A DNA stretch of 37,827 nt from Candidatus Jordarchaeia archaeon (GTDB taxonomy: Archaea > Asgardarchaeota > Jordiarchaeia > Jordiarchaeales > Jordiarchaeaceae), in contig JAHQXB010000043.1 of assembly GCA_029856435.1 (NCBI GenBank), positions 1 to 37,827 on the forward strand, written 5' to 3'. A program made the translations under genes and the position numbers. The stretch's first letter is position 1; each line of letters begins with the position of its first letter. Below, piece after piece: positions 8,588 through 25,900 of the stretch. Below the pieces are notes generated by a model that saw nothing but the letters and a program-made list of their open reading frames with translations, did not search any database and was not told the DNA's origin.

Positions 8588-9757
8588 TTAATTGTTGTTT
8601 TTGTTGTGTCGTAGGTAGAGTATGAAAAACATAAAGCCAGCAAGGGCCATGACTAGAGCGAAGAGCATAGTGTATCTGTATCCCCATATTTGGCTGATGA
8701 CTCCTCCTATTATGGGTCCCACAACAGTTGATAGGCTTATGGTGAAATTGAGTAGGCCCACTGATGTTCCCCTCTCTATACCGCTTTCGGCTACAAATTT
8801 TAGGGAGCCAATGTATAGTAGTGACCATGAGAGGGCTAGAACTAGCTGCATGGGGATTGTCTGCCAAAAGTTTTGTGCAATAAAGTATAAGGCGAAAGTT
8901 AATGCAGAAAAAGAAAGTCCCCCCACAACTAGAGATGTGCTTTTGAACCGGTCCAGGGGTCTCATTATGAAGAATTGGCCAAATGAATTTATTGCGTATA
9001 GTATTCCTATCCAGAGCTCGTTTGCTCCCAGCTGATTTAAGAAAAGCGGGAAAATTATCCATGTAGCGTAAGCGCCCGTGTGCCTAAAAAAGAAGGCTAT
9101 GTAGATGGAGATGTTTCTTTTGATTACATTTTTGGGAAACATAGGCACCTTAAGCCTAACATCGGGTATTGACATTTTGAGAGCCACGAGAAAACCCAAA
9201 AAGAAGAAAACTCCAGCCAATACAAACACTTCCCAGTAAACTGCAACAATGCCCGCCACGAAGTTGCCCACACCCCAACCTAGGGAACCATAAGAGACGA
9301 AACTGCCCATTTTCCTCCTTATCTCGTAACCATAGGCGATTAAGGCTTGGGGATAGATTCCCACACAGAAACCCGCCGCCGCCCAAGTCATTGTAAATAC
9401 TGTAGTGTTGGGAGCTAAAGGCTGCAGGGAGAACATCAATGCGGAGGATAACAGGCCAGCCACTAACAATGTCTTTCTTCCAGTAACATCAGCTGCTCTA
9501 CCAAAAATGTAGTTGGAAATGAGCTGGGTTAGCCCAAAAAGAGTGCCAATGAGACCTATTTGGGTGTCCGTGGCACCCAGATCTTTAGCAAAAAGAGGAA
9601 TAATTATGAAGCTAGTGGCTACAGAAACATTGGCAAAAAACATAATGGCGTTAGGCTTAAACATAGAAACTTGGCCTGTCTCTACTTTTTCAGCCACCTT
9701 TTTCCTGAACATTCTGCTTAGCAGGTTACCGCTCACCATTTGCACTCCATCTTTCAC
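8588..9757 (-). CDS. Major facilitator superfamily transporter, about 389 aa (start may be ATG 9739)
   Basis: About 12 hydrophobic segments; MFS motif A-like GRAADVTGRK and a second-half PLDRFKS equivalent. Confidence 0.9.
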   Translation of the reverse strand: MKDGVQMVSGNLLSRMFRKKVAEKVETGQVSMFKPNAIMFFANVSVATSFIIIPLFAKDLGATDTQIGLIGTLFGLTQLISNYIFGRAADVTGRKTLLVAGLLSSALMFSLQPLAPNTTVFTMTWAAAGFCVGIYPQALIAYGYEIRRKMGSFVSYGSLGWGVGNFVAGIVAVYWEVFVLAGVFFFLGFLVALKMSIPDVRLKVPMFPKNVIKRNISIYIAFFFRHTGAYATWIIFPLFLNQLGANELWIGILYAINSFGQFFIMRPLDRFKSTSLVVGGLSFSALTFALYFIAQNFWQTIPMQLVLALSWSLLYIGSLKFVAESGIERGTSVGLLNFTISLSTVVGPIIGGVISQIWGYRYTMLFALVMALAGFMFFILYLRHNKNNN

Positions 9758-9967
9758 TCTTTTTTATACGGATCCAAGAATATTTTTTTAAGGATGAAAC
9801 TGTAAACGAACAAGCTTTAATTCTTTATGGTAAACCCCAGACCCACTCTCCATAAAAAATAAGAGAAAACAGGAATGAAACTTATATTTTCCAAAAAATG
9901 AAGGGGAAAATTCTTAAAAAAAGTAGGTTTAGGGAACCCGAATTGAGGAAGTGTGCTTGTTTCTGCA

Positions 9968-12900
9968 TTATATTTTTTTGGCTCTCGCCGACACATCTTG
10001 AAGTATCAGGTTTAACAGTTTTATTAGTTCCATATTTGTGGTGTATATTCCCAGAGGCTCTGGTGCTGCGACTGCTAGGATCATTTCTTCGCTGTCCCTG
10101 TTGAAGGCGTACACATTTCCGGAGTAATGTTTGATTTGTATGTTTGGCGTGGATATTGGGGGAGCCTTCCCCTCAACGTCTGAGACCAACATGACTCTCT
10201 GTCTGGGCATCTGTGAGAGCTCACTTAAGGGTACGTCCTCAAGAGTGGGTGTTAGGATTGTTATGGTGCTCTTTGTGTTTCTTATGAAGGTTTTGAGCAG
10301 GTTGAGTATTTGCTCTCTTCCCACCACCCTCTCAGTGTCTTCGAATGGTTTGGGCTCAATTTCCTCGGCTAGTTTCATTATTTTGGTAATTAATTTCAGG
10401 GTATCCTGGGTGTTGGTTATGGCTTCATCTATTTTTTCTGGAATTTCTTCTGCGAAGCTATTTAGGGCTAGAGTTGAGTCTCTCTCGTTTTCTTCGATGT
10501 TTATCTTGGTTAGGGTTATGGTTTTGCTTATTTCTTTTAGGTAGTTTGAGGTTGCTTCTTGAAGCTGTTGTTTCAGGGACTGTTCCATGGTTGAGTAACC
10601 TGAGTTTAGGGCCTCTCCAAGTGAGGTGTAACTATCCTTTATGCTTTCAATGGTTTCATAGGTTTTGGATTTGAGGTCAGAGTGTCTTTTTTCAAATAAG
10701 AGACCCAGTTCTCTTTCAAAATCCAAGAGTTTTGTTTGAAGGCTTGCGAAAGGCTTATCAGTTATTCCAGCAACGCTCTTCAGTTCGGTTTCTGTGGCGT
10801 CTCTACTCTCCCTACTATGTTTGTCCAGTGTAGATAACAAATCGTATTTCATTTTTTCCAAGTAGCCTGGCAATTCTTGTCCAATAGCGGATATTACCTC
10901 TTTGGCTCCTTTTAGCACATTGTCCTGTTTCTCCCTAATCTCGTCTCTGGTCTTGGCCAGGTTTTCTTCCAGTTTTTCCTTATGGTCAGTGAGTTGTTTT
11001 CTGAGCACTTGGAATTCTTGTTCTATTCTAGAGGATACCTCCTTCTCCTTTAGGCTCAACAGTTTTACTGCCTTCTCAACGTAGCCATTTAGAGCCTCCT
11101 TTAAATTGGAGTGGAATTCTCCCAGTCTTTGCTCAGTTGTACCAATGAACTCCTTTATCTGGGTTTCCAAGTTTCTTTCAAGCGCCAGCCTCTCATCAGA
11201 TATCTCCTGAATGATCTGGCTTCCAAGGACGGGGACCTCGCTGGCAATTTTATCCGCGAATGTTTCCAAATCCGCTATGGACTCTGAGGAAACTTTTTGT
11301 ATTTCTTCTTTTGAAGCTAGAAGGCCACTAACAGTTTGCCTGGTTCGTGTGAAAATTTTTTGGGCCTCTATATTTGCGTTTTCCAAAGTTTTCTGGAGGC
11401 TTTCAGTGGTTTCCTCAAGTGAACTCTTTAAAGTCTCAGAAAGGCTCTCCACTGTGCCTTTAAACTGGCCCACAGTGTTTTCTATCAGTGCAGTGGACTG
11501 GGCTCTTACTGATGTCAACACCTCGCTGAGGGTCTGCGATACTTGACTTAGCTGCTGTGTGGCCTCACTAAGCATCTCCTCTCCCTGCTGACTCACTCTC
11601 TGGGACATGTTGGAGCATTGTTTCAGAATGTTTTCCCTCCCCTTTTTCATTGCATCTCCAATGCTTCGCTCCAGCTGGTTCTGAAGAGATAAAACGTTTT
11701 TGCCCTGTTCACTTAAGTTATTGATTGTTTCCTCTAAAAACTTGTTCAGAGCCATTCCAGTTTGTTCCTTGAAGCTGTTCTGCTCTTCCAATATTTTGTT
11801 AATTTCATTCTTCACAGATTCGTGTAGTGCCTGATAGGTTTCAACGATTTTTCCAATCTTTGATTCGAAGGCGCCCAGTAGGGTTTTTATTTGCTCAGCT
11901 TTGCCCGACACCTCTTCATCAGCGTATTTTTCTGTGCGTTTAACCATTTCACTGCTTTCTGTAAACATGGATGCTGCGAGTTCTTCCAATTGCTTGGAGA
12001 AGGAATCTGTAGCCTCGGTTAACTTTGAGTGATGATTAGAATTCAGAGTGTTCAGTTTTCCCCGCATCTCCTCCAAGTTTGTGGCTTGGGTCAAAATGGA
12101 GCTAAGTTCTTGGAGAGAGTTTAGATTTGTTTCGGTGACAGCACTGGCGCTGTCTGAGACCAACTTGTAACTGGTTTCTAGCACGTCCTGGACTTGGCCA
12201 AAAAGGTTGCCCAATTGCTCCTGAACATCCGAAGAAAGGGCAGTGGTGGTTTCATAATTTTCAATTATTGCTTTCTGTAAAACTTCAGAGGTTTCCTCCA
12301 ACTGTTTACTGATTCTAGTTTTAGCTGATTCAAACGCTGTTAAGCAGCTGTCTTCATGGCTTCTCATCTGGCTTGAGGCGTCTTTTATAATCTCCATTAT
12401 TTCTTGAAGATAGCTGTCTAATTGCTTGTCAACCTCCAGGAATGATTCGCTCAAACTGCTCTCGTTTATGTTCTTGAGGTTAATTATTTCGGAGTTCACA
12501 ACATCTTCGTAGGTTACCTTCACCGCTTGGTCAATTTCCCCTTTAGTTTTGGCGTCCTGGTCAACGAATAGGCGAATTGTTTTTTCAGTGCTCTTTCCGA
12601 GCGACTCTCTAATGTATGTCAAACTCCTGTCAAGCTCATCGAGGATGTTTGTGGAAACCATATTAATATTCTGGTTAACATCATTAACGGAGCTGCGTAG
12701 TTCACCTTTTAGAACCATAATTTCCTTTTTACTTGCAGCGATTCTATTCATAAGCTCCTCTGTTTCTTCCTTTCCCAGTGAGAACTTTTTCTTATCGCCC
12801 GACTTGTCCTCAATGTACTGGAGGATGTCAACCATTTTGTTAATCGCGGTGGTGAAGGTTTCTTCAAAACTGGTCATTTTACTCTTTTGAACCGCAACAC

Positions 12901-15406
12901 TATCTGTAAAGTTAACTGAAAGATTTTTTCTAAGAGACTCTGACTCGGAAGCGAAGTTGGACATAAAGTCTTCTAGGTGTTTCTTGGTTAACTGTGTCCT
13001 ATTCTCCAAGTACTCACCAATTTTTCCCACCAGACTCTTGTCCGCTTCACTTATCCTTTTTAGAATATTTTCTACAACTGTTCTTAAGTCTTTAGAGGCG
13101 CTGTCTTTTCTTTCTTTTAAGTTTTGCTTTAGGGATTTGGTTCTCCCGTCTATTTCTGCGCCTTTTGTTTCCAGCTCGACCTCCACTTTTTGGAGCCCTT
13201 CGCTTAGGGACGATTTTAACAGTTTTTCCTGCTCCCCCAAAATTTCCCAGATTTTTTCCAATCCCTTTTTTACTTTGTCCGAGTCAATGGTCTTTTTTGT
13301 GAATAGAGTCTCTTCCCACTCCTTAGTCTTTTTCTCCAATTTCTCCTTCAACTGTTCAAGATTTTTCATCAGCTCTTCTTGATTGGTTCTAAGGGTTGAT
13401 GCAACCTGCTGGCTCTGCGCATTTATTTTTTCTTCCACAATTGTACGGGTTTTGTTAAAGGACCCCATTATGTAGTTAACCTTGTTCTCCAATCCCTCAA
13501 TTGTCTGTTTTAGGGCTTCATCGATTTCCACCAAGTAACTGTCCCTAAGGACCGTTATTCTGTCACCAACGCTTTTTGCCAGCCCAACAAATCTCTGTAA
13601 CACCTGGTCACTGTGTTTACGAAATTCTTGAACCAAGTTTTCCCGCAGTTCATTTAGGGTGTTGTGGAATTCTTGTATTGCATCTTTGACCAAGTTTTTC
13701 ACAGAGTCATTAGTCTGGCTAGTTACAGAGTCAAAAGCCTGTTTTGACCAGTTATCGAAGCCAATCAAACTGTTTTCCCGAGCATCTAAAACCTCGTGGA
13801 AATTGTCCAGAGAGATTTGCACTGCTTCCTTAAATTTGTCCTGAAGTTTGTTTAGAACCGCAGCCTGTTCTTTTATGCAGCTCTCCACTTCACTCATAAC
13901 CATTGCGGAGTAGCCCTCAAAGAGATGTGTGGTGGACTTCTCAATTATTGTTCCCTGTTCTTCCACAGCCCTCATCAGAGACTCTTTTAAGTTTCGGGAA
14001 GCTTCTCCGATCATATTTATTTGTGTTTGGATTTTCTCTCCCAGAGTGAGTAAGCTGCCACCCAAAGAGTCAGCCATTTGCTCCCACTGTTTCGAAATCT
14101 GGAATACTGTTCGCTCAAAGAGGACTCCCTGTCCACCCTCATATTTTTTTAGTGTAGTTGTGATATCTTGCATCCTTTGTCCTAGTGCCTCAAATGATCT
14201 ATCTAGTGTGCTTAGGGGTTCTGTGGTTTCATCCTTATATTTCTCCATTATGCGTGATGCTTCCGTTTGGAAATTGTTTATGAATTCTTTAATCTTGGAG
14301 TTTACTCTCTTTGATTCTTCAAGTATTAGACCTCTAAGCTTTGCGGTTTGAACCTTAACCTTTTCCTCAGCTTCTCCTAGGAAGCCGACTAATTTTTTCT
14401 GGTTCAGATCGAGGTTTTTTCCGATATCCCCTAAAAGTGCCGAGTTAACGTCCCTCACTCTTGATAATTGTGTTTCAGTTAGGGGCTTCAATTCCTCCAC
14501 AAATTCCGAAACTCCAGACATCACGGTCTTAGCAATTTTTAGGGTGTTTTCATTTATAGTGTTTAGTGATTGGAGTTTGATGTCTCTAACACCTTTTAGA
14601 GATTGGTCTAAGGTATAATCTATGTCTGAGAATAGGGTTATGAGTTCAGAGTTTGTTCTTGCGGATACATCGCTTGTTCTTGTTTCTATGGCTTTTAAAG
14701 TATCGTTTACAGCGGTTTCCAGCTTTTCTTGAAACTCATTTATGGAGTTTCTTGTATGTTCTATGAAGTCCTTCAAAACTTTCTCGGAAGTTTCCTTTAC
14801 CCTTTCTATGTCGCTTCGAAAGGTGTCCACTGCTTCTTTGGCTCTGCCGACGAGGGTTTTTATTATTTCGCGGGAATCCTTCTCGTGGTGTTCAAGCATC
14901 TGTGTTAGGAGCTCTCCAACGCTTTGTGATTGTTGATTTGCTTCGGTTTGAAAATTGTCCAAGGATTCTTTAGTTGAAGCCAGAAGCTGGCCTAGCAGTT
15001 GAGAACTACTGTCTTTAACTTCCTTCAAATAAGTGGCTAAGCGCTCATCCAGACGAGTTTTGAGAGAAAGCACGCTCCTACTAAGTTGTTCAATGGCGCT
15101 TTTGGCACGTTCCACCATGTTTTTCTTCAAGTTTTCCAGCTTTGACTGAAGTGTTTCGGCAACCATACCAGTAAGGGCTAGGCGGGGGGTTAAAGCAATG
15201 TAGAAGTCAATTTTTCCCGGAATTTTTTTAATAACTCCCATAGACTCCAGTTTTTCCAGCTCCCGTGTAACTTCCGGAATGGTTAGATTCGTGTAGACTG
15301 CTAATTCTGAGGCTGTTTTTGCGCCAAGTCCCACACATGTTGCGTAAACTTTTGCCTGTACGCCGGTTATTCCAATATCCTTCAGAGTGTCTTCCCAAAC
15401 GGACAT
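9968..15406 (-). CDS. Giant TrmB-like protein, 1812 aa: N-terminal winged HTH (about aa 1-77), about 1600 aa of amphipathic helix/coiled coil, C-terminal TrmB effector/PLD-like domain (about aa 1692-1812)
   Basis: N-terminus LKDIGITGVQAKVY...TASELA...ELEKLESMGVIKKIPGKIDFYIALTP fits the TrmB wHTH pattern. C-terminus VVGREQILNLLKTFIRNTKSTITILTP...YAFNRDSEEMILA fits the TrmB C-terminal alpha/beta domain. The middle is E/K/L/S/Q-rich with very few Pro. Confidence 0.85.
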   Translation of the reverse strand: MSVWEDTLKDIGITGVQAKVYATCVGLGAKTASELAVYTNLTIPEVTRELEKLESMGVIKKIPGKIDFYIALTPRLALTGMVAETLQSKLENLKKNMVERAKSAIEQLSRSVLSLKTRLDERLATYLKEVKDSSSQLLGQLLASTKESLDNFQTEANQQSQSVGELLTQMLEHHEKDSREIIKTLVGRAKEAVDTFRSDIERVKETSEKVLKDFIEHTRNSINEFQEKLETAVNDTLKAIETRTSDVSARTNSELITLFSDIDYTLDQSLKGVRDIKLQSLNTINENTLKIAKTVMSGVSEFVEELKPLTETQLSRVRDVNSALLGDIGKNLDLNQKKLVGFLGEAEEKVKVQTAKLRGLILEESKRVNSKIKEFINNFQTEASRIMEKYKDETTEPLSTLDRSFEALGQRMQDITTTLKKYEGGQGVLFERTVFQISKQWEQMADSLGGSLLTLGEKIQTQINMIGEASRNLKESLMRAVEEQGTIIEKSTTHLFEGYSAMVMSEVESCIKEQAAVLNKLQDKFKEAVQISLDNFHEVLDARENSLIGFDNWSKQAFDSVTSQTNDSVKNLVKDAIQEFHNTLNELRENLVQEFRKHSDQVLQRFVGLAKSVGDRITVLRDSYLVEIDEALKQTIEGLENKVNYIMGSFNKTRTIVEEKINAQSQQVASTLRTNQEELMKNLEQLKEKLEKKTKEWEETLFTKKTIDSDKVKKGLEKIWEILGEQEKLLKSSLSEGLQKVEVELETKGAEIDGRTKSLKQNLKERKDSASKDLRTVVENILKRISEADKSLVGKIGEYLENRTQLTKKHLEDFMSNFASESESLRKNLSVNFTDSVAVQKSKMTSFEETFTTAINKMVDILQYIEDKSGDKKKFSLGKEETEELMNRIAASKKEIMVLKGELRSSVNDVNQNINMVSTNILDELDRSLTYIRESLGKSTEKTIRLFVDQDAKTKGEIDQAVKVTYEDVVNSEIINLKNINESSLSESFLEVDKQLDSYLQEIMEIIKDASSQMRSHEDSCLTAFESAKTRISKQLEETSEVLQKAIIENYETTTALSSDVQEQLGNLFGQVQDVLETSYKLVSDSASAVTETNLNSLQELSSILTQATNLEEMRGKLNTLNSNHHSKLTEATDSFSKQLEELAASMFTESSEMVKRTEKYADEEVSGKAEQIKTLLGAFESKIGKIVETYQALHESVKNEINKILEEQNSFKEQTGMALNKFLEETINNLSEQGKNVLSLQNQLERSIGDAMKKGRENILKQCSNMSQRVSQQGEEMLSEATQQLSQVSQTLSEVLTSVRAQSTALIENTVGQFKGTVESLSETLKSSLEETTESLQKTLENANIEAQKIFTRTRQTVSGLLASKEEIQKVSSESIADLETFADKIASEVPVLGSQIIQEISDERLALERNLETQIKEFIGTTEQRLGEFHSNLKEALNGYVEKAVKLLSLKEKEVSSRIEQEFQVLRKQLTDHKEKLEENLAKTRDEIREKQDNVLKGAKEVISAIGQELPGYLEKMKYDLLSTLDKHSRESRDATETELKSVAGITDKPFASLQTKLLDFERELGLLFEKRHSDLKSKTYETIESIKDSYTSLGEALNSGYSTMEQSLKQQLQEATSNYLKEISKTITLTKINIEENERDSTLALNSFAEEIPEKIDEAITNTQDTLKLITKIMKLAEEIEPKPFEDTERVVGREQILNLLKTFIRNTKSTITILTPTLEDVPLSELSQMPRQRVMLVSDVEGKAPPISTPNIQIKHYSGNVYAFNRDSEEMILAVAAPEPLGIYTTNMELIKLLNLILQDVSARAKKI

Positions 15407-15407
15407 T

Positions 15408-17729
15408 TTAGGCTTCCCCTACTTTTGAGATTTCTTTTTCAACGGCCTCTAATTGTTTTTGAGCTTCGCTCACAGACTTCAAAAAGTTTGCGAGTCCCTT
15501 TGATATGCTTCCTCCACTCTTTTTCACTTCACCCTCAACAGAGGAGAGGCTGGTAATAAGCGTTTTAATGTTCTCCTGTATATTGCTCATCTCTTCCTTC
15601 AATTCTTTGAGCAGCTGGTTTCCCTGTTCTGATAATTCACTGCTTGTTTTTTTGCCTTGCTCCGACAGTTTTTTAGAAATACTTGCGTAGGAACCTTCAA
15701 GGTTTTCCTTCACCTTTACTTTAACGGAAGTCAAGCTGGGTTCAGCGTCCTCAGCCACACTTTTTATATATTCGCTTAGGGAGTATTTTTCCGCATCTGC
15801 GGTTTCCAAAATGCTCGATTTGCTCTCCTCCAACTCCTTCTTGAGACTACTTATACTATTTGTGACGATGTTCTTTAGGGTGGACTCCAATCTCTCAACA
15901 GACTCCATAGTTGCTGAAGAACTCTCATTTATTCCTTCACCCATTTTTTGCTGGAACTCATTTACCAGATTTTCAATACTTTTTCCCAAATTCTGGTCCA
16001 GCTCCCGCAATTTCTTGATGAAGGCTTCCTGCACTTCTATCGTTTTCGTTTTGGTTCCTTCAAGAATTTGACTAAAATTCCCTTTTGATTCTCCAACGTC
16101 TCTAATCACTCTTTCTAGGGATTGCTCTATTTCTGTGGTCATGCTTGTTGATGCACTTTCTCCAATTTCACCCATCAATTCACTGGTGCTTTTAATAAGT
16201 CCTGAGGTCTTACTCCTGAAATCAGCATTCTGAGATAGGATTAAGGCTTGGTTGGCGTCGAGGACGCTCCTAACATTCCTTGTGACACTATCTTTAATGG
16301 ACTTGTTCTTTTCAACATATCCCTCCAAAGATTCAGACAGTTTTTCTAGGAATTTTTTTAGAGCCCCATCAAAATCCTGCTTTGTTTCTGCCAGTCCAGA
16401 GTCGAAATTGGACTTTATTAGTGAGGCGTTATCATAGAAGGATTTAACGGACACAGTTGCCATTTGTGTGAATTGCTCCTCATAGCTTTGAAGAACGGAT
16501 TGAATCTCCTTCAGTTGCGAAACAAACATTTCATTAATATTAGTATTTATTGAGTCTACCAATTTGGATATCTGCTCCAAAGCACTCGAGAGATCCTCTC
16601 TTATCTGTTCCTGTAAAGATAGCACACTTCCCTCCAGTCGTTCCAGCTGACTCACAAGTTGGGAAGAGAAGCTGGAAATCAGGTTTCCCACACTCTTGGA
16701 GAACTCTTCCTCCTTTGAACTGACTACTTCCGAAAGTTTATCCTTGGCTCTGCTGCTAATCTCTTCAATTTCCTTGATTTTAGCTTCCGCAATGCCTTTT
16801 AGTTCTGTTTTAAACTCTTCTTTCACCTTCTCCAGAAGGGATGTAGCCTCCTCAAATTTTTCGTCCGCATCACCCTTAAGCCTTTCGTGAGACTCAGCCA
16901 CCTTACCCTTATACTCGTCACAAATCTTGTCCAGAGAGCTTATGGTTTCTGTATCCAGCGTTTCCAGCCTATTTTTCATCTGGAGAACCATGGATTCAGC
17001 TTTCCTTTTGGCGTCCGCAAATATGGATAAGAGATTATCTTGATGCTTATCTAAAATTTCAGATGCCTGTGTTCCAAAATCCCCAATTTGAGTCGTAAAG
17101 CGTGCATAGTTTCCTTTTATTTCGCTGCCTTCCTCCTCTTCGAATTTTTGTATGCTTGAAAGGAGTTGACTGCTTAACTCTTCAGAGACTTTTGATAATA
17201 GTTCCTCCTGTTTCTTTCGGTTTTCCTGAGTTTTGGAGCGAAACTCCGCCGCTAGTTCACCAATCTGTGAAATCATTGATTCTACTTGGGTGTCCAGGTT
17301 TGATTGTGTGCTTGTGATACTTTGGCTGAAACTGCCCTTTGAAGCCTCAATTTTTTCCGTGATTCTACTATCTACTTGTTTCAGGTTTGCAAGTAGCCCC
17401 TCAGTTATGCGGTCAATTCCCTGGCTGAGAGCATCAACCTGAGTGTTAATTTCTTCCCTCAGGCTTGCCTCCATCTCTTGCATCCATTTAATGACATTGC
17501 TTTCAGCATCCTTAAGTGAGGCCAAAAACTTCTTCCTTAACGCATCCTCATTCGACTGCAGCTGTTTTGAAGCAGTTTTCAATTTTTCAGATGAGGAACC
17601 AATTTGCTCAGTTAAGCTGGAAAACGTCTGGTCTAACCTCGTTTCCAATTCCTTGACACTATTTTTTGTTTCTTCCAATGATTCCCTTTTGGCTGCAACC
17701 TTCTGCTGAATTTTTTCCATAAAGTTCAT
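15408..17729 (-). CDS. All-alpha-helical coiled-coil/apolipoprotein-like protein, 773 aa, no recognisable globular domain (start may be ATG 17720)
   Basis: Long ORF in the E/K/S/L-rich helical style of its neighbour, with a single Pro. ATGA overlap with the upstream stop; ends 1 nt before the next ATG. The GGAGG SD is better spaced for ATG 17720. Confidence 0.88.
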   Translation of the reverse strand: MNFMEKIQQKVAAKRESLEETKNSVKELETRLDQTFSSLTEQIGSSSEKLKTASKQLQSNEDALRKKFLASLKDAESNVIKWMQEMEASLREEINTQVDALSQGIDRITEGLLANLKQVDSRITEKIEASKGSFSQSITSTQSNLDTQVESMISQIGELAAEFRSKTQENRKKQEELLSKVSEELSSQLLSSIQKFEEEEGSEIKGNYARFTTQIGDFGTQASEILDKHQDNLLSIFADAKRKAESMVLQMKNRLETLDTETISSLDKICDEYKGKVAESHERLKGDADEKFEEATSLLEKVKEEFKTELKGIAEAKIKEIEEISSRAKDKLSEVVSSKEEEFSKSVGNLISSFSSQLVSQLERLEGSVLSLQEQIREDLSSALEQISKLVDSINTNINEMFVSQLKEIQSVLQSYEEQFTQMATVSVKSFYDNASLIKSNFDSGLAETKQDFDGALKKFLEKLSESLEGYVEKNKSIKDSVTRNVRSVLDANQALILSQNADFRSKTSGLIKSTSELMGEIGESASTSMTTEIEQSLERVIRDVGESKGNFSQILEGTKTKTIEVQEAFIKKLRELDQNLGKSIENLVNEFQQKMGEGINESSSATMESVERLESTLKNIVTNSISSLKKELEESKSSILETADAEKYSLSEYIKSVAEDAEPSLTSVKVKVKENLEGSYASISKKLSEQGKKTSSELSEQGNQLLKELKEEMSNIQENIKTLITSLSSVEGEVKKSGGSISKGLANFLKSVSEAQKQLEAVEKEISKVGEA

Positions 17730-19447
17730 TCCTCCTTAATTGTAACTTTTTTGTTTAAAGCCTCAAACTCCTTTAGAAAAATCGGCTGATTAGTAAAGGC
17801 GTTTGTAGCCTTTTCATATAACCTCTTTATTCTATCTTTGTCACCCGCCCGCATGTAATGTTCAAAGGCTTTGTGATAAAAAACTCGAGCCATCATTTTG
17901 AAGCCCATACCATCATATTCGTCTCCAATTTCCTCGTAAATTAAAGCAGCACTCCTAGCTACGGAGCGGGCCTTCCACTCCACACCCAATGCGGCAAAGA
18001 GTTCCGAAGCGTGGGAAAGAAGGAATCGTGAATAGAAGCGTTTACCCTTACCCTCAAAAAGTTCAGCGGCCTTCTCCAGAATCATTCCCGCCCGCTCCCT
18101 ATCCCCCAACCTTTCATAAATACTTACAGTTATCCGGAAAAGCTGAAAAGATTCACTATAAAGCTTCTTCTCCATAGCAGAGTATGCATAAACCTCGGCG
18201 TTTGCAGCAATCTCTAAGGCAAGGGCCGGTTTATCCTGAGAAATCAACATGTTCGCTGAATCCCTCAACCATTCAAAATAAATACGATCCAACCTCTCCC
18301 TAGTCTCTATCATCCTTCCAATAACCTTCAACAACGTTCTTGCTCGGCCATAAATCTGATCCACGTTTACAAGAAGCCTCAACATTTCATAGATGGCTTC
18401 AGACTTGAGCCACACCGTGGACTCATCAACCTCCACTATGCCCTCTCCAACCAAGAGGTTTAGAACCTCCCGACTGGTTTTCTTATCACCCTCCTGACTT
18501 ATCTCCTCTATGGGAACCATGTTAAATTTTTGCGAAACAATCCTCTCTATTACCGTCTCCTTTTCCACAGTGAGATCAGTTATAGCATTGAGAGCATTAT
18601 CTTGGATCTTTCCATTTACCATTCGAAAAAGTTCTACGCTTGGCTGAGAACCACTCTTAACGGTTTCCCGCAGCAAGCCACACATAAACAAGGCTAGTTT
18701 GAAAGGAATACCCCCCGAAGCTTTGGTTAATTCCTCCTTAAGAGCATCATCAATTTTGATTCCAGTTAAAGCCTGATATTTCTGTATTAACAGTCGAATA
18801 TCTTGGGTGGAGAAAACATCCAACTCCACAACATAAAAGAGTTCAGGCCTATCACCTATCAAAGCCTCAAGAAACCTTCTGTCCACGCAGAGCACAAAAA
18901 ACAAGTTAAATTTCATTTCGCCCAGTTTAGCTGCCACCTCTCTCAATAGAAGATAAGCGGTCTCGTAACCCAACCAGGCGAAACGCTCAAAATCGTCGCA
19001 GAAAAACATCAAAGTCCTGCGAAGCTTTTCCTGAACCTTATCCATATCCTCAAAAAACTGCTTCAAAAAGTATTCCAGCTCACCTTCCCCAAGCTCCTTG
19101 GACACGGGGGGAGCCGCAACATATTTTTTTTCTCCCATAAACTTTTTCCTAGCCTCAGGAGCATAACCATCAACAGTCTTCTTAACATCATCAAAAAACA
19201 CTCTCACATTGGACGCAGAAACCCTTCTAACCACCACTTCGATGCCTTCCTTTTCCGCTATCTGCGTAAACCTTTTTAGCAGGGAAGACTTTCCAATACC
19301 GGGAATCCCAGTTATAACGAAAATCCTCCTATCCTCAGAACCAGTCTTCGCCCGAGAAATAAAGTCCTGAAACAAGCTAACCTCTCTGGTTCTACCCGTA
19401 AAAAGCTCCCTATCAACAGGCTCAACACAACTAATTTTCTTCTCCAA
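17726..19447 (-). CDS. STAND/AAA_16-type P-loop NTPase with winged helix and C-terminal TPR/SNAP-like helical repeats (ORF track extends to 19510)
   Basis: FTGRTRE (hhGRxxE), Walker A GIPGIGKS, Walker B MFFCDDFE, SGGIP (GxP), wH-like EVLNLLVGEGIVEVD, then A/Y/E-rich repeats (AAELFEGKG...AALIYEEIGD...AFEHYMRAGD). Probable TTG start at 19447 after GGTGG. Confidence 0.85.
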   Translation of the reverse strand: MEKKISCVEPVDRELFTGRTREVSLFQDFISRAKTGSEDRRIFVITGIPGIGKSSLLKRFTQIAEKEGIEVVVRRVSASNVRVFFDDVKKTVDGYAPEARKKFMGEKKYVAAPPVSKELGEGELEYFLKQFFEDMDKVQEKLRRTLMFFCDDFERFAWLGYETAYLLLREVAAKLGEMKFNLFFVLCVDRRFLEALIGDRPELFYVVELDVFSTQDIRLLIQKYQALTGIKIDDALKEELTKASGGIPFKLALFMCGLLRETVKSGSQPSVELFRMVNGKIQDNALNAITDLTVEKETVIERIVSQKFNMVPIEEISQEGDKKTSREVLNLLVGEGIVEVDESTVWLKSEAIYEMLRLLVNVDQIYGRARTLLKVIGRMIETRERLDRIYFEWLRDSANMLISQDKPALALEIAANAEVYAYSAMEKKLYSESFQLFRITVSIYERLGDRERAGMILEKAAELFEGKGKRFYSRFLLSHASELFAALGVEWKARSVARSAALIYEEIGDEYDGMGFKMMARVFYHKAFEHYMRAGDKDRIKRLYEKATNAFTNQPIFLKEFEALNKKVTIKEE

Positions 19448-19616
19448 AATAACCACCAACCAAAAATGAACACTAAACAAAAATAATAGAGAAAAACGAT
19501 AAATAAACATTTTTTAACTAAACCAGAAAAGGGGAAAAGTTTAGAATAGAATTTCACAAAAACAAAATTATACATCCTCAGCACAAAATCCCAAGCTTAG
19601 AGAGGAGGAAATAGTT

Positions 19617-20429
19617 TTGAGGGCAAACCTAGATGGTTTTCAAATGTACTATGAAGATGTGGGTAAAGGGGCGCCAGTGATTTTTATTCACGGGTGGGGC
19701 GGAGACTCCAGAGAGTGGAAACTCGTTATACCTGAACTGGCCAAAGAGATTAGATGCATAGCCGTTGACCTCAGGGGCCATGGACAATCGGATAAACCTA
19801 ATGAACCCTATACCCAGTCCCTTTTTGCCAGGGACTTGATATCTTTGCTAAACTATTTGGGCATAGATCGCGCATACTTTTGCGGTGCCAGCATGGGAGG
19901 ATACGTGGCTCAAAAAGTTGTTTTGACTTATCCCCAAAGAGTCAGAGGACTAATATTGGTAGGCGCATCACCCTACATTCCAGAGCAAACCGTAAAAGTT
20001 TCGGGAAAATGGGCGGAAACCCTCCTGGGCAAGGGGTTGGAAGCCTTCGTAGAAGCCCAAGTCAAAGACGTTTTTCATCCCGCCTTTGCCAGACGACACA
20101 AAGAAACAATCGATATCTTTCGGGAGAGTAAGCGGGTGCCACCCTCTGAAGTTTCAGGATTAATAAATAAGGGCATGCAGATTGAGCCCATAGACTTCAG
20201 GAAAAGTCTGAGGGAAATTAAGGCGCCCACCCTAATTATCCACGGGCGCGACGACCAAATAGTTCCAGTAGAATATGCGGAACATATGCACAAACAAATC
20301 CCCAACTCCCAGCTAGCAGTCCTCCCACTTTGTGGCCACCTACCCGTAATGGAACGACCAACATATTTCGCGGACCTACTGCTCTACTTCATAGAAAAAA
20401 CAGAGAAAAAGGCCGGGAGGAGAAAATGA
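19617..20429 (+). CDS. Alpha/beta hydrolase (PcaD/enol-lactonase-like), 270 aa
   Basis: IHGWGG oxyanion loop, DLRGHG, GASMGG nucleophile elbow, IHGRDD acid, GHLP His; TTG start after GAGGAGG. Confidence 0.92.
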   Translation: MRANLDGFQMYYEDVGKGAPVIFIHGWGGDSREWKLVIPELAKEIRCIAVDLRGHGQSDKPNEPYTQSLFARDLISLLNYLGIDRAYFCGASMGGYVAQKVVLTYPQRVRGLILVGASPYIPEQTVKVSGKWAETLLGKGLEAFVEAQVKDVFHPAFARRHKETIDIFRESKRVPPSEVSGLINKGMQIEPIDFRKSLREIKAPTLIIHGRDDQIVPVEYAEHMHKQIPNSQLAVLPLCGHLPVMERPTYFADLLLYFIEKTEKKAGRRK

Positions 20430-20645: not shown

Positions 20646-21107
20646 TTATTTGGAGGATTTGCCTAGTTCTCTGATTCTGGACTGTATGAACTCCAAAACT
20701 TTCTCTTCACCGTATTTTCTCTCTTCTTGTTGTTTTTTCAAAAGTTCTCTAACTGCTTTTAGGAGTTCTTCCATGTTTAGGGGTTTAAGTAGGTATCTAT
20801 CGGCGTTCCTATTTACGGCTTCTATGGCATTCTGCATAGTGGGGTAGCCGGTAATTATTATTTTAGCCATTTTTGGAACTGTTTCTTTCATCATGCTTAG
20901 CAATTTTGTTCCCTCTATGTCTGGAAGGCGAATGTCTACCAGTGCCAAGTTGTAGAAATTGTTTTCCGTTTTTTCTATCGCCTCCTTACCATTTCTAGCA
21001 GTATCAACGGTGTAGCCTTCCTCTTGAAGTATAGCAGTTAAAACTTTTCTTATGCTTTCATCATCGTCCACAATAAGAATCCTAGCGGGTTCACTCATAA
21101 TTTTCAC
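20646..21107 (-). CDS. Single-domain response regulator receiver with short C-terminal helix (start GTG 21107 or ATG 21098)
   Basis: ILIVDDD, LVDIRLPD (phospho-Asp), IIITG, LLKP; overlaps the kinase stop codon. Confidence 0.95.
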   Translation of the reverse strand: MKIMSEPARILIVDDDESIRKVLTAILQEEGYTVDTARNGKEAIEKTENNFYNLALVDIRLPDIEGTKLLSMMKETVPKMAKIIITGYPTMQNAIEAVNRNADRYLLKPLNMEELLKAVRELLKKQQEERKYGEEKVLEFIQSRIRELGKSSK

Positions 21108-23811
21108 CGTCCTTAATTTTTCGTTTAATCGGAAGCGTTATCGTAATAGTGGTGCCCTTCCCAAGCAAACTTTCTAAAAGAATGGAGCCCCCGTGAGCCT
21201 CCACCAGTCGTTTACAGATTGGTAAGCCCATTCCAAGCCCCCTCGCCTTTGTAGTGAAGAGCGGGGCCCAAATTTTATCCAAAAGCTCAGGGGGCACTCC
21301 TCTTCCGGTGTCCGCAAAAATTATTTTTAAGTTACCGCCAGCCAATCTAGTTTCTATTGTGAGCTCGCCACCCTCCGGCATAGCATCAACACTGTTTTTA
21401 ACAATGTTCACAAACACTCTCTTCAGTTTCTCCACATCAACCATAACTACTGGATCATCAATAACCACTTTTGACACTCGAATATTGTCTGGCACATCCA
21501 CCAAACTTAAAGCCACATCCACAACGCTTTTAACACTGGCCTCAGCTAGTTCCAGTTGAACCTCTCCTGAATACTCCAGAAGATCCTCGACTATTTTATT
21601 AGAATACTGTACGTTTTTCTCGATTAGTTCAAACATTTCAGCTGTTTTCTCATCCATGCTTGAAGCCAGCTTCTTTTTCAAGTAATAAACAGCGCCAGCA
21701 ATGCCGGTCAAAGGGTTGCGGAGATCGTGGCCCACCATCATCGCCACCTCACCTATGGTGGCCAGTCTCTCCGACTTGAGAAGGGCTTCCTCCATCATTT
21801 TGCGTTCAGTTATATCTTTCGTTATCGCCACAAAACCTATGGGTTTGCCTGAAGCATCCCGCAAAACACTCGCAGACAACTCAGCCGGAAATTCTCGTCC
21901 ATCTCTAGTCAAAAGAGTATACTCAACATTACTCACAGAACCTAGCATCAAAGTTTTCATCAGATTACGATTGGCTTTTTCCCTATCTTTTTCAGCAATA
22001 TACTTGAAAGCACTTTGACCAATCACTTCCTCCCTAGATGAGAAACCGTGAACGTCCAAGGTTGCTTGGTTGCATTCAATCACATTTCCATTAAGGTCAG
22101 TGACGGTGATTGCATCTGGGGAGGAAGATAGAATGGTTCTAAGCTTCTCCTCGCTCTCCTTCAACTCCTTAGTCCTTTCTTCCACCATTGCCTCAAGACG
22201 CTCCGCATATTCCTTCAACTTCTTCTCCAACCTTTTACGCTCGGTTATGTCTCTTAAAAAGACCAAATCTGCGGTTTTCCCCTGAAAATTGATGCGCGCC
22301 GCGTTTATTTCTACGGGTAAGGGTGCGCCGTCTTTTTTTATGATTTCAATCTCATATATTGGTGGTACTTTTTTGCCCTCCAGTCGGTCATTGTATCTTT
22401 CAAGAACAAGTTCCCGGTAATCGGGAGCGACGAAATTCAAGAAATTAGCGCCTTTGAGTTCTTCAGGCGTGTATCCCGCAAGCTCTACTGAAGCAGTGTT
22501 AACAAATTTAAGTTTGCCGTCTTGGATTATTATGATACCATCCTTTGAGTTCTCAACCACAGCAGAATATTTAGCCTCTGATTCCCGCAACGCTTCCTCC
22601 GCAAGTTTACGCTCAGTAATATCCCTTGACACTGCAAGTATAGCTTTAGGCTTCCCATACGCATCCGCTATTACCGACATATTGGTCTCAATTGAAACGA
22701 CTGTGCCATCCATCTTAACTATTTTGTATTCAACGTTGCGTGCGCTACCTGTTTCAAGAAGACATCGCATAATCTCCAGTGCGTGTTGACGGTATTCAGG
22801 CGCTATAAATTCAAAACCATTTTTCCCAATCAACTCCTCTTCCTTTTCGCACCCTAATACCTTTAAGCCCTCCCTGTTAACCATAAGTATTTTGCCATCT
22901 AGGTCAGTGAGTGTGATTGGGTCGGGTGAAGTGTCAACCAGGCTACGATATTTTTCTTCGCTCTCCCGCAAAGCCTCCTCTGCACGCTTGCGTTTAGTGA
23001 CTTCTAAGGTGACCTCAACAACACCTATAATGTTTCCTTTTTCGTCTCTAACAGGATAACCGCGAATAAGCCAAATTCGCCCATCCGGGGCAACCATCTC
23101 TCCTTCCTGCGGTTGACCAGTTTCTAAAGATTTTGTCACTGGGCAGCCTACACAGGGTTTGCTGCGCTTCTGCCAAACTTCATAACAATAGCGTCCCACT
23201 AGTTGTTCTGCTGTTAAAGAAGCGGATGTGCCAGCAGTCCTATTTGTCCATACAATCCTATGATCCTTATCTTGATAAATAACATCCTCAGCTATACTAT
23301 CTAAGATTAGTGCTTTTTCCCGCTCAGCCTTTTTTAAAGCCTCCTCCATACGTTTACGCTCAGTTATGTCTATAACTACTCCTATTAAACCCACACACTT
23401 ATTTTCCCTAGTAAGGCGATTCGCAAGTATGGCGACTGGGAATGTGCTGCCATCCTTTCTACGAGCCGTGTACTCGATACTTCCCAGTTTCTCTCCCACA
23501 AGTACTCTTTGGAAATTTTTTACGGCTCTATCCAAATCTTCGGGAATTAACATTTGAAAGACATTTAAACCTTTATCATAGTCTTCCTGCGTGTAGCCAA
23601 ATGCTTTAAATGCGTAGCGGTTAGCAAAGGTAATATTGCCCTTGTCATCCGTTTCCCAAACAATTTGAGGTAAGGAATCAACCAATTCACGGAATCTATC
23701 TTCGTTCCGCCGAAGAAAATTCTCCATCCCCCCAACCTCACTGATTCCAAGCTGAAGTTGCCCATTAGCCTCCGATAATTTGGCGGTTTCCTTCAACACT
23801 ACTTCCTCCAA
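21091..23811 (-). CDS. Cytoplasmic sensor histidine kinase with five PAS/PAC domains, HisKA and HATPase_c, up to 906 aa (alternative start ATG 23727)
   Basis: Five PAS/PAC units ending DITERK or a variant; H-box GHDLRNPL; N-box NIVKNSVDAM; G1 DTGRGV; G2 FTTKARGLGMGL; no transmembrane segment seen. Confidence 0.95.
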   Translation of the reverse strand: MEEVVLKETAKLSEANGQLQLGISEVGGMENFLRRNEDRFRELVDSLPQIVWETDDKGNITFANRYAFKAFGYTQEDYDKGLNVFQMLIPEDLDRAVKNFQRVLVGEKLGSIEYTARRKDGSTFPVAILANRLTRENKCVGLIGVVIDITERKRMEEALKKAEREKALILDSIAEDVIYQDKDHRIVWTNRTAGTSASLTAEQLVGRYCYEVWQKRSKPCVGCPVTKSLETGQPQEGEMVAPDGRIWLIRGYPVRDEKGNIIGVVEVTLEVTKRKRAEEALRESEEKYRSLVDTSPDPITLTDLDGKILMVNREGLKVLGCEKEEELIGKNGFEFIAPEYRQHALEIMRCLLETGSARNVEYKIVKMDGTVVSIETNMSVIADAYGKPKAILAVSRDITERKLAEEALRESEAKYSAVVENSKDGIIIIQDGKLKFVNTASVELAGYTPEELKGANFLNFVAPDYRELVLERYNDRLEGKKVPPIYEIEIIKKDGAPLPVEINAARINFQGKTADLVFLRDITERKRLEKKLKEYAERLEAMVEERTKELKESEEKLRTILSSSPDAITVTDLNGNVIECNQATLDVHGFSSREEVIGQSAFKYIAEKDREKANRNLMKTLMLGSVSNVEYTLLTRDGREFPAELSASVLRDASGKPIGFVAITKDITERKMMEEALLKSERLATIGEVAMMVGHDLRNPLTGIAGAVYYLKKKLASSMDEKTAEMFELIEKNVQYSNKIVEDLLEYSGEVQLELAEASVKSVVDVALSLVDVPDNIRVSKVVIDDPVVMVDVEKLKRVFVNIVKNSVDAMPEGGELTIETRLAGGNLKIIFADTGRGVPPELLDKIWAPLFTTKARGLGMGLPICKRLVEAHGGSILLESLLGKGTTITITLPIKRKIKDGENYE

Positions 23812-24454: not shown

Positions 24455-25564
24455 CTATAGGCGGACGTCTCTGAGAAGAGTAATAATATTGTTTCTTCCC
24501 CGAGGCTCCCTCTTAATGAAGCCCTTCTTCTCCAATATGGAAAGCGTGATGCTCACCTTAGCTTTACTATAATTGGTGGCCTTCTGAATCTCCTTCTGCG
24601 TGACACGCTTATTTTCAGATGAAGCGATAACTCGGAGAATCTCAATCTCTGCCTCGTTAAGCAGGGTGAGAGAAGTGTCAGTCACCGTTTCAACCAGTTT
24701 TGTTCTATGATAAAGATAGAAAACAAACATCCCAATAACAAGACCCAACAAAAAAATAGCAACAAAAAGTGAGGGACTAGAAGAGGTGGGGTATAAAACT
24801 GGAAAATAAAGTATTTGTGGTATCAGGGCCGCATCTGAGAGTTGGTATCGTATCACAAAAAGCTCGGTGCTCCCCTCATCTAATTTTAAGCTCCACTGGA
24901 AAAGTAAAGAGGAACCATCTGTAAAGTTTAAACTATCTATGGGATAGAGGGGGTCGACACCGGAATACAAAAACCTCTCAGGCGGAAGCTTCACCCGGAA
25001 AACTATATTTTTCATGTTAACATCCGCTTTGAGCATGTAAGAAAACTGAGTGTAACTGGTGGTAAGTGAAACCACCTGGGAAGTATCAAAATCAACAGTA
25101 AAATTATAAAAAGAATTGGGCTCAAGATTAGATACATTCAGACGAACAACAGTTTTGGTAGACAAAGTATCAATTATCGTGTCATAAAGCGGCCCAGTTT
25201 TATTTTCCACCCGGAGGTTTATGATATTGGTTAAACTGAAGGAAACGTTTAACTCATCTATAGGTGTGGCTCCCGTATTATTTGCGGAGAAAAAGCAAGA
25301 GAAATGAGCAGTATCATTATCATAAAGGATAATATTAAACTCCACATCAACATACTCAAACGAAGAAGGAGACTTAACAGTCAAGAATGGAGAATCACAG
25401 TAATGATAAAGAGGAGAAATGCAAAAAGAACTGTTGTGAAATTGTCCATAGGAAAGATATGAAAAACAGGCGAAAAGTAAAACAAGTATCACAATTAAAA
25501 AGAATGCTCCCTTTAGACGAGTATACCCCACTGGACTTTTTAATATAGGAACACTAGCACACAT
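24455..25564 (-). CDS. Membrane-anchored winged-HTH regulator (COG2512-like): N-terminal TM/signal, extracellular beta-rich glycosylated domain, TM, cytoplasmic wHTH (start uncertain; ORF extends to 25672)
   Basis: Hydrophobic FFLIVILVLLFACF; many N-x-S/T sequons; TM LFVAIFLLGLVIGMFVFY; C-terminal LNEAEIEILRVI...VTQKEIQKATNYSKAKVSITLSILEKKGFIKREPRGRNNII. Confidence 0.8.
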   Translation of the reverse strand: MCASVPILKSPVGYTRLKGAFFLIVILVLLFACFSYLSYGQFHNSSFCISPLYHYCDSPFLTVKSPSSFEYVDVEFNIILYDNDTAHFSCFFSANNTGATPIDELNVSFSLTNIINLRVENKTGPLYDTIIDTLSTKTVVRLNVSNLEPNSFYNFTVDFDTSQVVSLTTSYTQFSYMLKADVNMKNIVFRVKLPPERFLYSGVDPLYPIDSLNFTDGSSLLFQWSLKLDEGSTELFVIRYQLSDAALIPQILYFPVLYPTSSSPSLFVAIFLLGLVIGMFVFYLYHRTKLVETVTDTSLTLLNEAEIEILRVIASSENKRVTQKEIQKATNYSKAKVSITLSILEKKGFIKREPRGRNNIITLLRDVRL

Positions 25565-25900
25565 TAAAACACCGTCAAGCGAACTTACTCCTATTCTACA
25601 TTTCCTGCAGATTACTTTAAGTTTTACCAATAGGGCACAAAAATAAATAACCGCCATTTTTGACCAGCCCATTGTGAAGCATTACAAACACGAAAACAAG
25701 CATGGTCCAGCAGTGAATCTATGGTTTACTAAAGGTGATTTTCCTGCTTTGTTTCTTCCCACCGCCATCCTAAAAGGTGCTGTTCTTATGCTTCTCGACC
25801 CGCTAGGCTTAAAGTACCATTTGCAAACTATATTTGAAAATATCCCCTTCAAACAAGACCCTGAAGGAGCTTTGAATTAAAATTAGAATCGGAGGGAATA

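Follow-up and report, generated by a model that had tools for sequence, protein, structure and literature searches.

TrmBL2 is a chromatin protein that coats DNA in Thermococcales. Like TrmB, it is a compact protein of 260-340 amino acids (aa), in which an N-terminal winged helix-turn-helix (wHTH) domain and a C-terminal PLD-like domain are connected by a short helical linker of a few dozen residues. STAND-type nucleoside triphosphatases (NTPases) such as MalT, the Avs/NLR-like proteins and the archaeal AAA_16/ATPase_2 proteins contain a P-loop with an hhGRxxE-type N-terminal motif, followed by a helical or winged-helix region and a C-terminal helical-repeat tail. In SMC, Rad50 and MukB, a long antiparallel intramolecular coiled-coil arm, whose strands co-vary in length, connects the end domains. 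The hendecad assemblies, i.e., the tetrabrachion stalk, the exchangeable apolipoproteins and the ZorA tail, display an uninterrupted 11-residue hydrophobic periodicity. Here, we describe a three-gene operon from a Candidatus Jordarchaeia archaeon (GenBank assembly GCA_029856435.1), whose products share features with each of these systems. The window denotes the whole stretch of DNA that was analyzed, positions 1 to 37,827 of contig JAHQXB010000043.1 (37,827 nucleotides), and the three genes are termed A, B and C. Gene coordinates and protein features are listed in Table 1.

No known prokaryotes are closer to eukaryotes than the Asgard archaea, and the operon studied here may bear on how these arrange DNA and cell interior over long distances. 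We consider the following architecture to be very probable: the three genes form one operon, C is a protein of the TrmBL2 type whose hendecad arm is folded back or antiparallel, and A is a switch-type NTPase. That this set functions as a switchable long-range chromatin tether or scaffold is put forward tentatively. When architecture and function are blended into one statement, i.e., a chromosomal, vertically inherited three-protein structural module acting as a nucleotide-switched, DNA-anchored tether or scaffold, we regard the case as evenly balanced.

On the minus strand of the window, three open reading frames (ORFs) lie end to end in the same direction (17726-19510, 15408-17729 and 9968-15406). 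The stop codon TGA of A (17728-17726) overlaps the first ATG of B (17729-17727) in an ATGA, and the stop codon TAA of B (15410-15408) is followed by the single base 15407 and then by the ATG of C. An earlier reading of the letters of this DNA, the sequence-only reading, had proposed three co-oriented genes joined by the ATGA overlap (17726-17729) and the 1-nt gap (15407), and both junctions were confirmed. B may nevertheless start at its second ATG (17720), since B homologues begin with MEKIQQ at that position; the protein would then comprise 770 aa and the ATGA overlap would be replaced by a 5-nt gap. Within window 17715-17745 (minus strand), a GGAGG motif is located 2-3 nt before the first and 11-12 nt before the second ATG of B. 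For A, the most likely start is the TTG at 19447, which was also the choice of the sequence-only reading and results in 573 aa. Homologues are 570-576 aa long, this TTG is preceded at 6 nt by a GGTGG motif, and an AT-rich, promoter-like stretch surrounds the alternative ATG at 19510. The same reading had called the set an operon and expected homologues of the three genes to stay adjacent in other genomes. This adjacency is indeed kept in Jordarchaeia, Sif/Borrarchaeia, Wukongarchaeia and Heimdallarchaeaceae as well as in metagenome-assembled genomes (MAGs) labelled Hod-, Hermod- and Helarchaeota, and the genes remain linked even when rearranged.

Full-text literature searches found no published description of the gene set, and one Asgard chromatin preprint mentions TrmBL as a proteome category only. 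The view that no named system matches the set also stood after PADLOC and literature searches. The set itself is described under no known system name, and its A-C, A-B/C-split and C-A-B variants are new here, as are the invariant length of B, the symmetry of B about its core and three more PLD-ended hendecad rods of the same genome.

Protein C carries TrmB-type domains at both ends. Pfam TrmB (PF01978) matches the N terminus with an E-value of 1.6e-8 (34.7 bits against a cutoff of 25.6), and a wHTH profile built from 15 homologues retrieved TrmB (3qph, 2.1e-10) and TrmBL2 (5bqt, 5bpd and 5box, 1.7e-9) from the PDB. Sequence searches of the PDB and Pfam gave no match for the C-terminal domain, which was identified by the fold search alone. 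An AlphaFold2 (AF2) model of this domain, based on 9 homologues, reached a mean predicted local distance difference test (pLDDT) score of 79.5, with 84-93 in the core. In a Foldseek search, this model matched the TrmBL2 structures 5bpd, 5bpi, 5bqt and 5box best (E 1.5e-8), followed by TrmB (3qph and 2f5t; the range for TrmBL2 and TrmB is 1.5e-8 to 1.4e-7) and then by PLD-fold nucleases. As in TrmBL2, the domain spans ~130 aa without a sugar-binding subdomain, and structurally it is closer to TrmBL2 than to sugar-sensing TrmB. Eight positions are invariant (P, E, K, P, R, D, E and E). Since no His is among them, the PLD-like domain probably lacks catalytic activity, like its counterparts in TrmB proteins. 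C represents a complete protein of the TrmBL2/TrmB type, the two domains of which are split by ~1,600 residues of hendecad helix with a probable turn at the midpoint. With 1812 aa it falls outside the compact size range of TrmBL2 and TrmB. C further differs from these proteins in being encoded together with a dedicated ATPase and a second rod, and its DNA binding is a prediction.

The TrmB family consists mainly of regulators, and C retains both TrmB domains. C might therefore be a TrmB-family transcription factor with a very long linker that regulates its own operon or distant genes, with A as a MalT-like co-regulator. A regulator of this kind has no evident need for a length-matched, conserved hendecad arm of 1,600 residues and a dedicated 770-aa helix. 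In addition, the likeness of C is to the chromatin protein, and not to the sugar sensor whose sugar-binding subdomain it lacks. We assign a very small probability to this explanation.

Outside the window, the same genome encodes three more hendecad-rod proteins ending in a C-type PLD-like domain, none of which adjoins an A- or B-type gene (Table 1). The TrmB-rod architecture is thus a small paralogous family in this organism.

The helical parts of B and C share an unusual periodicity. In B, hydrophobic residues recur every 3.664 residues (11/3) with a normalized power of 84, compared to 0.9 at period 3.5 and ~4.5 in shuffled sequences. The hendecad power of C is 90, again against ~4.5 in shuffles, and the signal stays in phase over the whole length of ~145 hendecads. 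Values of 35-147 were obtained for all 12 B and 9 C homologues, with shuffles at ~4.5. The periodicity analysis found no phase break along the whole length of B and no heptad signal in B or C (power ~1 at period 3.5). In B, the hydrophobic residues occupy the hendecad positions a, e, h and partly d. Within the 11-mer register, basic residues flank the hydrophobic stripe and acidic residues lie opposite. Proline is nearly missing, with 1 Pro in the 773 aa of B and 5 Pro between aa 75 and 1655 of C, as the sequence-only reading had noted. The long helical rods of that reading are likewise upheld by the periodicity, and their repeat is hendecad, not that of a classical coiled coil. As one helix, B would extend over ~115 nm.

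A hydrophobic periodicity of 11/3 leads to straight or slightly right-handed bundles, or to amphipathic belts. Several database matches of B and C bear on this choice. Pfam Apolipoprotein (PF01442, cutoff 90) scores above its cutoff on both proteins (102.9 bits for B and 119.5 bits for C), and the best PDB sequence matches to the conserved core of B are ApoA-I and ApoA-IV (E 1e-6). PADLOC returned high-scoring matches of B and C to ZorA tails, LmuB and LeoB, which cover the coiled-coil tails of those models alone. A look-up of B in the ESM Atlas gave low-scoring helical clusters only. The matches to Apolipoprotein, the ZorA tail and ApoA-I/ApoA-IV can be explained by the shared hendecad periodicity. 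The defining non-helical parts of the apolipoprotein and ZorA families are found in neither B nor C, and Pfam detected no MotA_ExbB. In contrast to the known hendecad assemblies, B and C are devoid of membrane, MotA or secretion parts and of Pro punctuation, and their runs are far longer (70 hendecads in B and ~145 in C). The likeness is one of periodicity and composition, and homology to these assemblies is not claimed.

The same matches are also what would be expected if B and the arms of C were apolipoprotein- or perilipin-like amphipathic helices coating or belting a lipid surface, e.g., a tubule, vesicle or droplet, with C tying this surface to DNA and A regulating the loading. Both proteins consist of tandem 11/22-mer amphipathic helices with the charge distribution described above, the apex of C is basic and hydrophobic, and the two-fold symmetric growth of B (see below) recalls the antiparallel double belt of ApoA-I. 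Nonetheless, the hydrophobic stripe is narrow, taking up ~3-4 of 11 positions with large aliphatics as in bundle cores, the 22-mers lack the Pro punctuation of apolipoproteins, and periodicity alone could account for the similarity. The mirrored insertions and deletions in C, described next, imply pairing of helix with helix. For these reasons we give the lipid-belt explanation a small probability.

The hendecad signal of C collapses at one central place, where the motif DKKKFSLGKEE is found (FSLGK being aa 875-879). A motif of the type h-G-K is conserved at the exact midpoint of the helix in all homologues from A-B-C-type loci. The arms on both sides of this apex are matched in length in 12 homologues. 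They measure 797 and 805 aa in the window protein and are equal within 0-8% in the 11 others (e.g., 566/563, 655/666, 582/600 and 792/804 aa), even though the arms can be as short as 463 aa or as long as 805 aa. An alignment of the window protein with its homologue from Ca. Jordarchaeum madagascariense (locus L027, 62% identity) is interrupted exactly twice, by gaps of 231 aa (21 hendecads) and 241 aa, which lie 251-481 and 201-441 residues from the apex. Likewise, between two C proteins of the Borr/Sif type (loci L015 and L016, 73-76% identity), one arm shows gaps of 33 and 40 aa and the other arm gaps of 33 and 33 aa. The distances of these gaps from the apex are 392-424 versus 387-420 and 160-199 versus 176-209 residues. 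Within one genus, this gives a length series of C proteins of 1812, 1339 and 1176 aa with paired arm deletions, which is new here. For mirrored phase breaks of the hendecad pattern in the two arms, the best mirror centres were off the midpoint in 10 of 10 proteins, which we take neither for nor against pairing.

The losses come in pairs of equal size at matching distances from the apex, which argues for an antiparallel two-stranded arm, and the conserved loop at the midpoint favors a hairpin over an antiparallel dimer without a turn. Judged from these comparisons, C almost certainly folds back into a hairpin at the apex, which would bring both end domains together. The arm would be ~120 nm long at 0.15 nm per residue. 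Thus, of the TrmB-headed giant rod that had been read from the letters, the TrmB head stands, but the straight rod of 1,800 aa gives way to a probable folded-back arm of ~2 x 800 aa, and the TrmB-type domain at the C terminus had been missed. The apparent joining of the end domains by a long antiparallel intramolecular coiled-coil arm is what C has in common with SMC, Rad50 and MukB. It differs from them in that its head would consist of wHTH and PLD-like domain instead of an ABC ATPase, its apex is a short basic loop and not a hinge or zinc hook, its periodicity is hendecad and not heptad, and the ATPase is a separate STAND-like protein. Neither B nor C gave any SMC_N or ABC match.

The length of B behaves differently from that of C. 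It is fixed at 767-773 aa in the families f1, f2 and f16, and equally in genomes of the Jord-, Frey-, Borr- and Sif-type, where the C proteins span 1176 to 1812 aa. Only the central core aligns to every B homologue. This core is free of gaps and of any turn motif, and it is located centrally in the long (~770 aa) as well as in the short (425-557 aa) forms, with aa ~320-460 of the window protein corresponding to aa ~170-300 of the 425-505-aa forms. With the conserved core central in long and short forms alike, the alignments describe growth of B that is symmetric about a continuous central helix. This symmetry suggests that B could be an antiparallel homo-oligomer with a dyad at its centre. Folding of B back at a central loop was considered and rejected, the centre being a gap-free conserved helix without a turn. 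We also rejected an arrangement in which B lies along the arm of C one-to-one, because B is constant at ~770 aa while arm lengths of C between 463 and 805 aa occur in a single genus. Conserved terminal peptide motifs of B that might act as TPR ligands were looked for, and none was found.

Protein A was assigned to the STAND-like NTPases on the basis of Pfam AAA_16, which matches with 45.2 bits (cutoff 32.6). The narrower models nSTAND1 (26.5 against 27.1) and ATPase_2 (25.9 against 33.2) stay below their cutoffs, and a PDB profile search retrieved the RuvB lid and Cdc6 alone, as weak matches. The P-loop is intact, but the Walker A Lys is replaced by Arg in two separate lineages (L019:2111-3820 and L044:10909-12792; GSGRTS and GIGRRS). 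The residue that follows the invariant D151 of the Walker B motif varies between D, N, S, C and K. An intact P-loop in combination with a variable catalytic residue after Walker B suggests that A may be a slow-hydrolyzing, binding-driven switch rather than a motor. The C-terminal tail matches SNAP weakly (E 5e-4) and TPR_14 and TPR_8 below their cutoffs. Hairpin-like repeats are visible in the alignment, and the basic motifs GDxERAG and EWKxKSxAR are conserved across families. Both domain calls of the sequence-only reading, i.e., a STAND-like NTPase with a putative helical-repeat tail in A and a TrmB wHTH in C, therefore held.

In line with STAND NTPases, A has the P-loop with the N-terminal motif and the AAA_16 match, and it may also have the following helical/winged-helix region and the C-terminal helical-repeat tail. 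It differs from them in the unconserved catalytic residue, in forming a separate small family that is always encoded beside hendecad rods, and in lacking an effector. Pfam and the alignment revealed no effector or output domain at either end of A, as the NTPase begins at most ~15 aa from the start and the tail reaches the C terminus. Since A has no effector domain, its output is plausibly the binding of rods only. The family is small: of 1.84 billion representative proteins, 33 score at E<1e-30. The next-best matches are AAA_16/ATPase_2 proteins of ~380 aa, which align to the NTPase part alone.

The closest relatives of A (88-93% identity) are encoded on MAG contigs labelled Candidatus Jordarchaeia or Freyarchaeota, and a homologue with 71% identity is present on the complete chromosome CP147778.1 (Freyarchaeia). 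Relatives from Borrarchaeum and Sifarchaeum share 29-31% identity. According to their cluster labels, remoter members stem from Wukongarchaeota, Heimdallarchaeaceae (including Ca. Heimdallarchaeum endolithica), Hodarchaeota, Hermodarchaeota and Helarchaeota. The homologues of 570-576 aa carry only the annotations 'hypothetical' or 'ATP-binding protein', to which 'AAA family ATPase' is added among the remoter members. A 51%-identical fragment of A was found on JAPDJY010000070.1 (L035), which is labelled Thermoproteota; the MAG label is probably wrong or the bin mixed, because the upstream genes match those of a Jordarchaeales contig (L029).

A profile search (full-length match, E<=1e-54) detected A in 83 of 400 Asgard genomes. 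Where present, it is family-wide (f5, 31/31; f14, 11/12; f16, 5/5; f20, 3/3). In all 28 genomes with readable context, A adjoins a hendecad-rod gene. The usual order, A-B-C, is found in ~20 genomes from at least 10 GTDB families, contigs permitting, with identities of A down to 20%. In these loci A comprises 550-596 aa, B 425-773 aa with ~0% Pro and C 1176-1812 aa. A clade with A and C only (f24-f26, labelled Hel) has a shorter C of 1048-1123 aa with the same three-part build and an A with one extra TPR-like hairpin, and it is supported by 100% in the SH-like approximate likelihood ratio test of the A tree. In f21 genomes, A and B are adjacent and C lies 8-18 kb off on the opposite strand, and the order C-A-B occurs in genome G242, the one strong f9 genome. 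In the A-C-type locus of genome G146 (L049:1-2295), two ORFs (503 aa and at least 231 aa) take the place of a single C gene; a frameshift, a misassembly or a true gene split may be responsible. In the A tree, sequences cluster by family, and every family is monophyletic. The survival of the linkage through rearrangement, together with the monophyly of the families, argues for a chromosomal operon that would be inherited vertically as a functional unit.

These data bear on two further explanations. The first is a conflict or defense system, in which A would be an NLR/Avs-like sensor and the rods an effector or scaffold, e.g., one that traps invader DNA by the heads of C. The STAND-like architecture of A and the high PADLOC scores of B and C for ZorA tails, LmuB and LeoB would fit such a system. 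The PADLOC matches are confined to the coiled-coil tails, however, and no MotA/ExbB, nuclease, TIR or other effector accompanies them, the PLD-like domain being without an invariant His. The operon is inherited vertically and family-wide, the families are monophyletic in the A tree, the neighboring genes differ between families, and no defense or mobile genes flank the operon in the window. A role in defense, one of the options raised in the sequence-only reading, is thus disfavored by inheritance, missing effector and neighborhood, and we consider it highly unlikely.

The second explanation is an apparatus for chromosome or replicon partition, comparable to AspA-ParB-ParA or TubZRC, with C as DNA adaptor, B as spacer or track and A as the NTPase that drives or licenses separation. 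Such an apparatus would agree with the tight coupling of three genes, for an NTPase, a DNA binder of the wHTH type and one further protein, in an operon that is present as a single chromosomal copy and vertically inherited. A, however, is STAND/AAA_16-like and not a cytomotive NTPase of the ParA, actin-like or tubulin-like kind, and its catalytic residue after Walker B is unconserved. The operon is missing from many Asgard families, and no centromere-like repeat array turned up near it, although no search was made for one. Partition is therefore quite unlikely.

In the preferred reading, a nucleotide-switched, DNA-anchored tether or scaffold, C would be a TrmBL2-type DNA-binding protein whose short dimerizing linker has expanded into ~1,600 residues of hendecad helix. 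By folding back at the basic loop, the wHTH and the PLD-like domain would form one 'head' at the base of a stiff arm of ~120 nm, resembling SMC or Rad50 in topology without the ATPase head. The basic-hydrophobic apex could bind membrane, DNA or a partner. B, as a continuous hendecad helix of ~115 nm, would probably self-pair in antiparallel orientation with two-fold symmetry around its conserved centre. A would act as a STAND-type nucleotide switch, whose TPR/SNAP-like tail may bind the rods and gate their assembly. In its ATP-bound state, A might oligomerize into a hub that gathers or releases rods, and DNA held by the C heads would be linked over ~100 nm to other DNA or, by the basic apex, to the membrane. 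The most specific version, a nucleotide-gated tether of ~120 nm from chromatin at the C head to the cell envelope or a second DNA at the apex, with B as bundling rod and A as assembly switch, is unlikely in this complete form.

Several points weigh against the preferred reading. An antiparallel homodimer of C without fold-back would give the same mirror pattern. The fold-back is drawn from comparative evidence, and full-length modelling was of low confidence: for the 1176-aa homologue of C (12 sequences), AF2 reached a pLDDT of 57.6 and a predicted template modelling score of 0.27, with the non-helical midpoint stretch 536-544 as the sole visible feature. The length of B does not track the arm length of C, so B cannot simply line the arm one-to-one. 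The Apolipoprotein scores given above leave a lipid-binding reading open. The contact between A and the rods is one that we infer; a complex prediction for full-length A with the conserved core of B scored 0.17 against a mark of 0.32, a result that counts neither for nor against binding. Nucleation or remodelling of the rods by the NTPase, filament formation by the rods and their tethering to DNA, as put forward in the sequence-only reading, are likewise hypothetical. Finally, in the largest sampled families (f9, with 1 of 135, as well as f7 and f12), most genomes yielded no such operon, which is thus not a universal Asgard housekeeping function.

Among the continuous helical rods predicted in archaea, the two encoded by this operon rank with the longest, and the set is kept together across lineages labelled Jord-, Sif/Borr-, Wukong-, Heimdall-, Hod-, Hermod- and Hel-. 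If the tether or scaffold function is true, it would represent a new kind of chromosome-organizing machine with SMC-like topology, built from hendecads and without an ABC head. An envelope or DNA tether would amount to a prokaryotic scaffold from chromatin to the cell periphery, analogous but not homologous to nucleoskeletal tethers. The carriers of the operon include Heimdallarchaeaceae and Hod-labelled MAGs, within the lineage that holds the closest relatives of eukaryotes. The length series of C (1812, 1339 and 1176 aa) is a natural ruler experiment, and the operon is a target for cryo-electron tomography and biochemistry in the few cultured Asgard strains.

Table 1 Coordinates of the operon, its protein features and the related rods of the same genome. 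Positions refer to the window unless a locus label (L050-L052) is given.
Feature	Position	Strand	Description	Basis
Gene A	17726-19447	-	573-aa STAND-like P-loop NTPase without effector domain	
Walker A of A	19286..19309	-	G47-S54, GIPGIGKS; G50 and G52 invariant, K53 nearly so	alignment A1
Walker B of A	18992..19012	-	aa 146-152, LMFFCDD; D151 invariant	
A putative C-terminal helical-repeat tail	17729..18265	-	aa ~395-573 (~180 aa), TPR/alpha-SNAP-like	weak Pfam matches
Gene B	15408-17729	-	773 aa (770 from second ATG); 70 uninterrupted hendecads	
B conserved central core	16350..16772	-	aa ~320-460	sole part aligning to every B homologue
Gene C	9968-15406	-	1812-aa TrmBL2/TrmB-type protein, split by a probable hendecad hairpin arm	
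C N-terminal wHTH	15176..15406	-	aa 1-77	Pfam TrmB and PDB profile search
C N-arm	12785..15175	-	aa 78-874, 797-aa hendecad helix	local hendecad power/phase; arm lengths
C apex loop	12761..12808	-	aa ~867-882, DKSGDKKKFSLGKEETE, basic and hydrophobic	hendecad signal collapse
C C-arm	10355..12769	-	aa 880-1684, 805-aa hendecad helix	local hendecad power/phase; arm lengths
C C-terminal PLD-like domain	9971..10354	-	aa 1685-1812, TrmBL2 type	AF2 and Foldseek
Operon upstream region	19448..19616	-	AT-rich, TATA-like; putative promoter	read from sequence
Shine-Dalgarno-like GGTGG	19453-19457	-		read from sequence
Putative archaeal terminator	9893..9922	-	two oligo-T runs 45-75 nt after C stop	read from sequence
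PLD-ended rod paralogue G000:C137	L050:5368-7629	-	753 aa, TrmB-like wHTH	
PLD-ended rod paralogue G000:C74	L051:49-1824	+	at least 591 aa, cut by contig end	
PLD-ended rod paralogue G000:C180	L052:4904-6550	-	548 aa, no obvious wHTH	

The genes flanking the operon are unrelated to it and encode a major facilitator superfamily (MFS) transporter, an alpha/beta hydrolase, a response regulator and a PAS histidine kinase. The GC content is uniform across the region, i.e., that of the operon equals that of its flanks. The MFS gene (8588-9757) lies downstream and is not conserved as a neighbor in other families. It was considered as a fourth member of the operon and rejected, since Jord- and Borr-type loci have unrelated membrane proteins at this downstream position. 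On the other side, the alpha/beta-hydrolase gene is divergent from the operon and starts at 19617. At 20646-23811 on the minus strand, two genes overlap, one for a 906-aa histidine kinase that contains five PAS domains and the other for a stand-alone receiver domain. The two form an ordinary two-component pair, which is not kept beside the operon in other families. A 405-aa protein is encoded 5 kb from the operon at 24455-25672 (minus strand); it carries a C-terminal MarR/TrmB-like wHTH and DUF7343, preceded by ~330 unannotated N-terminal aa.

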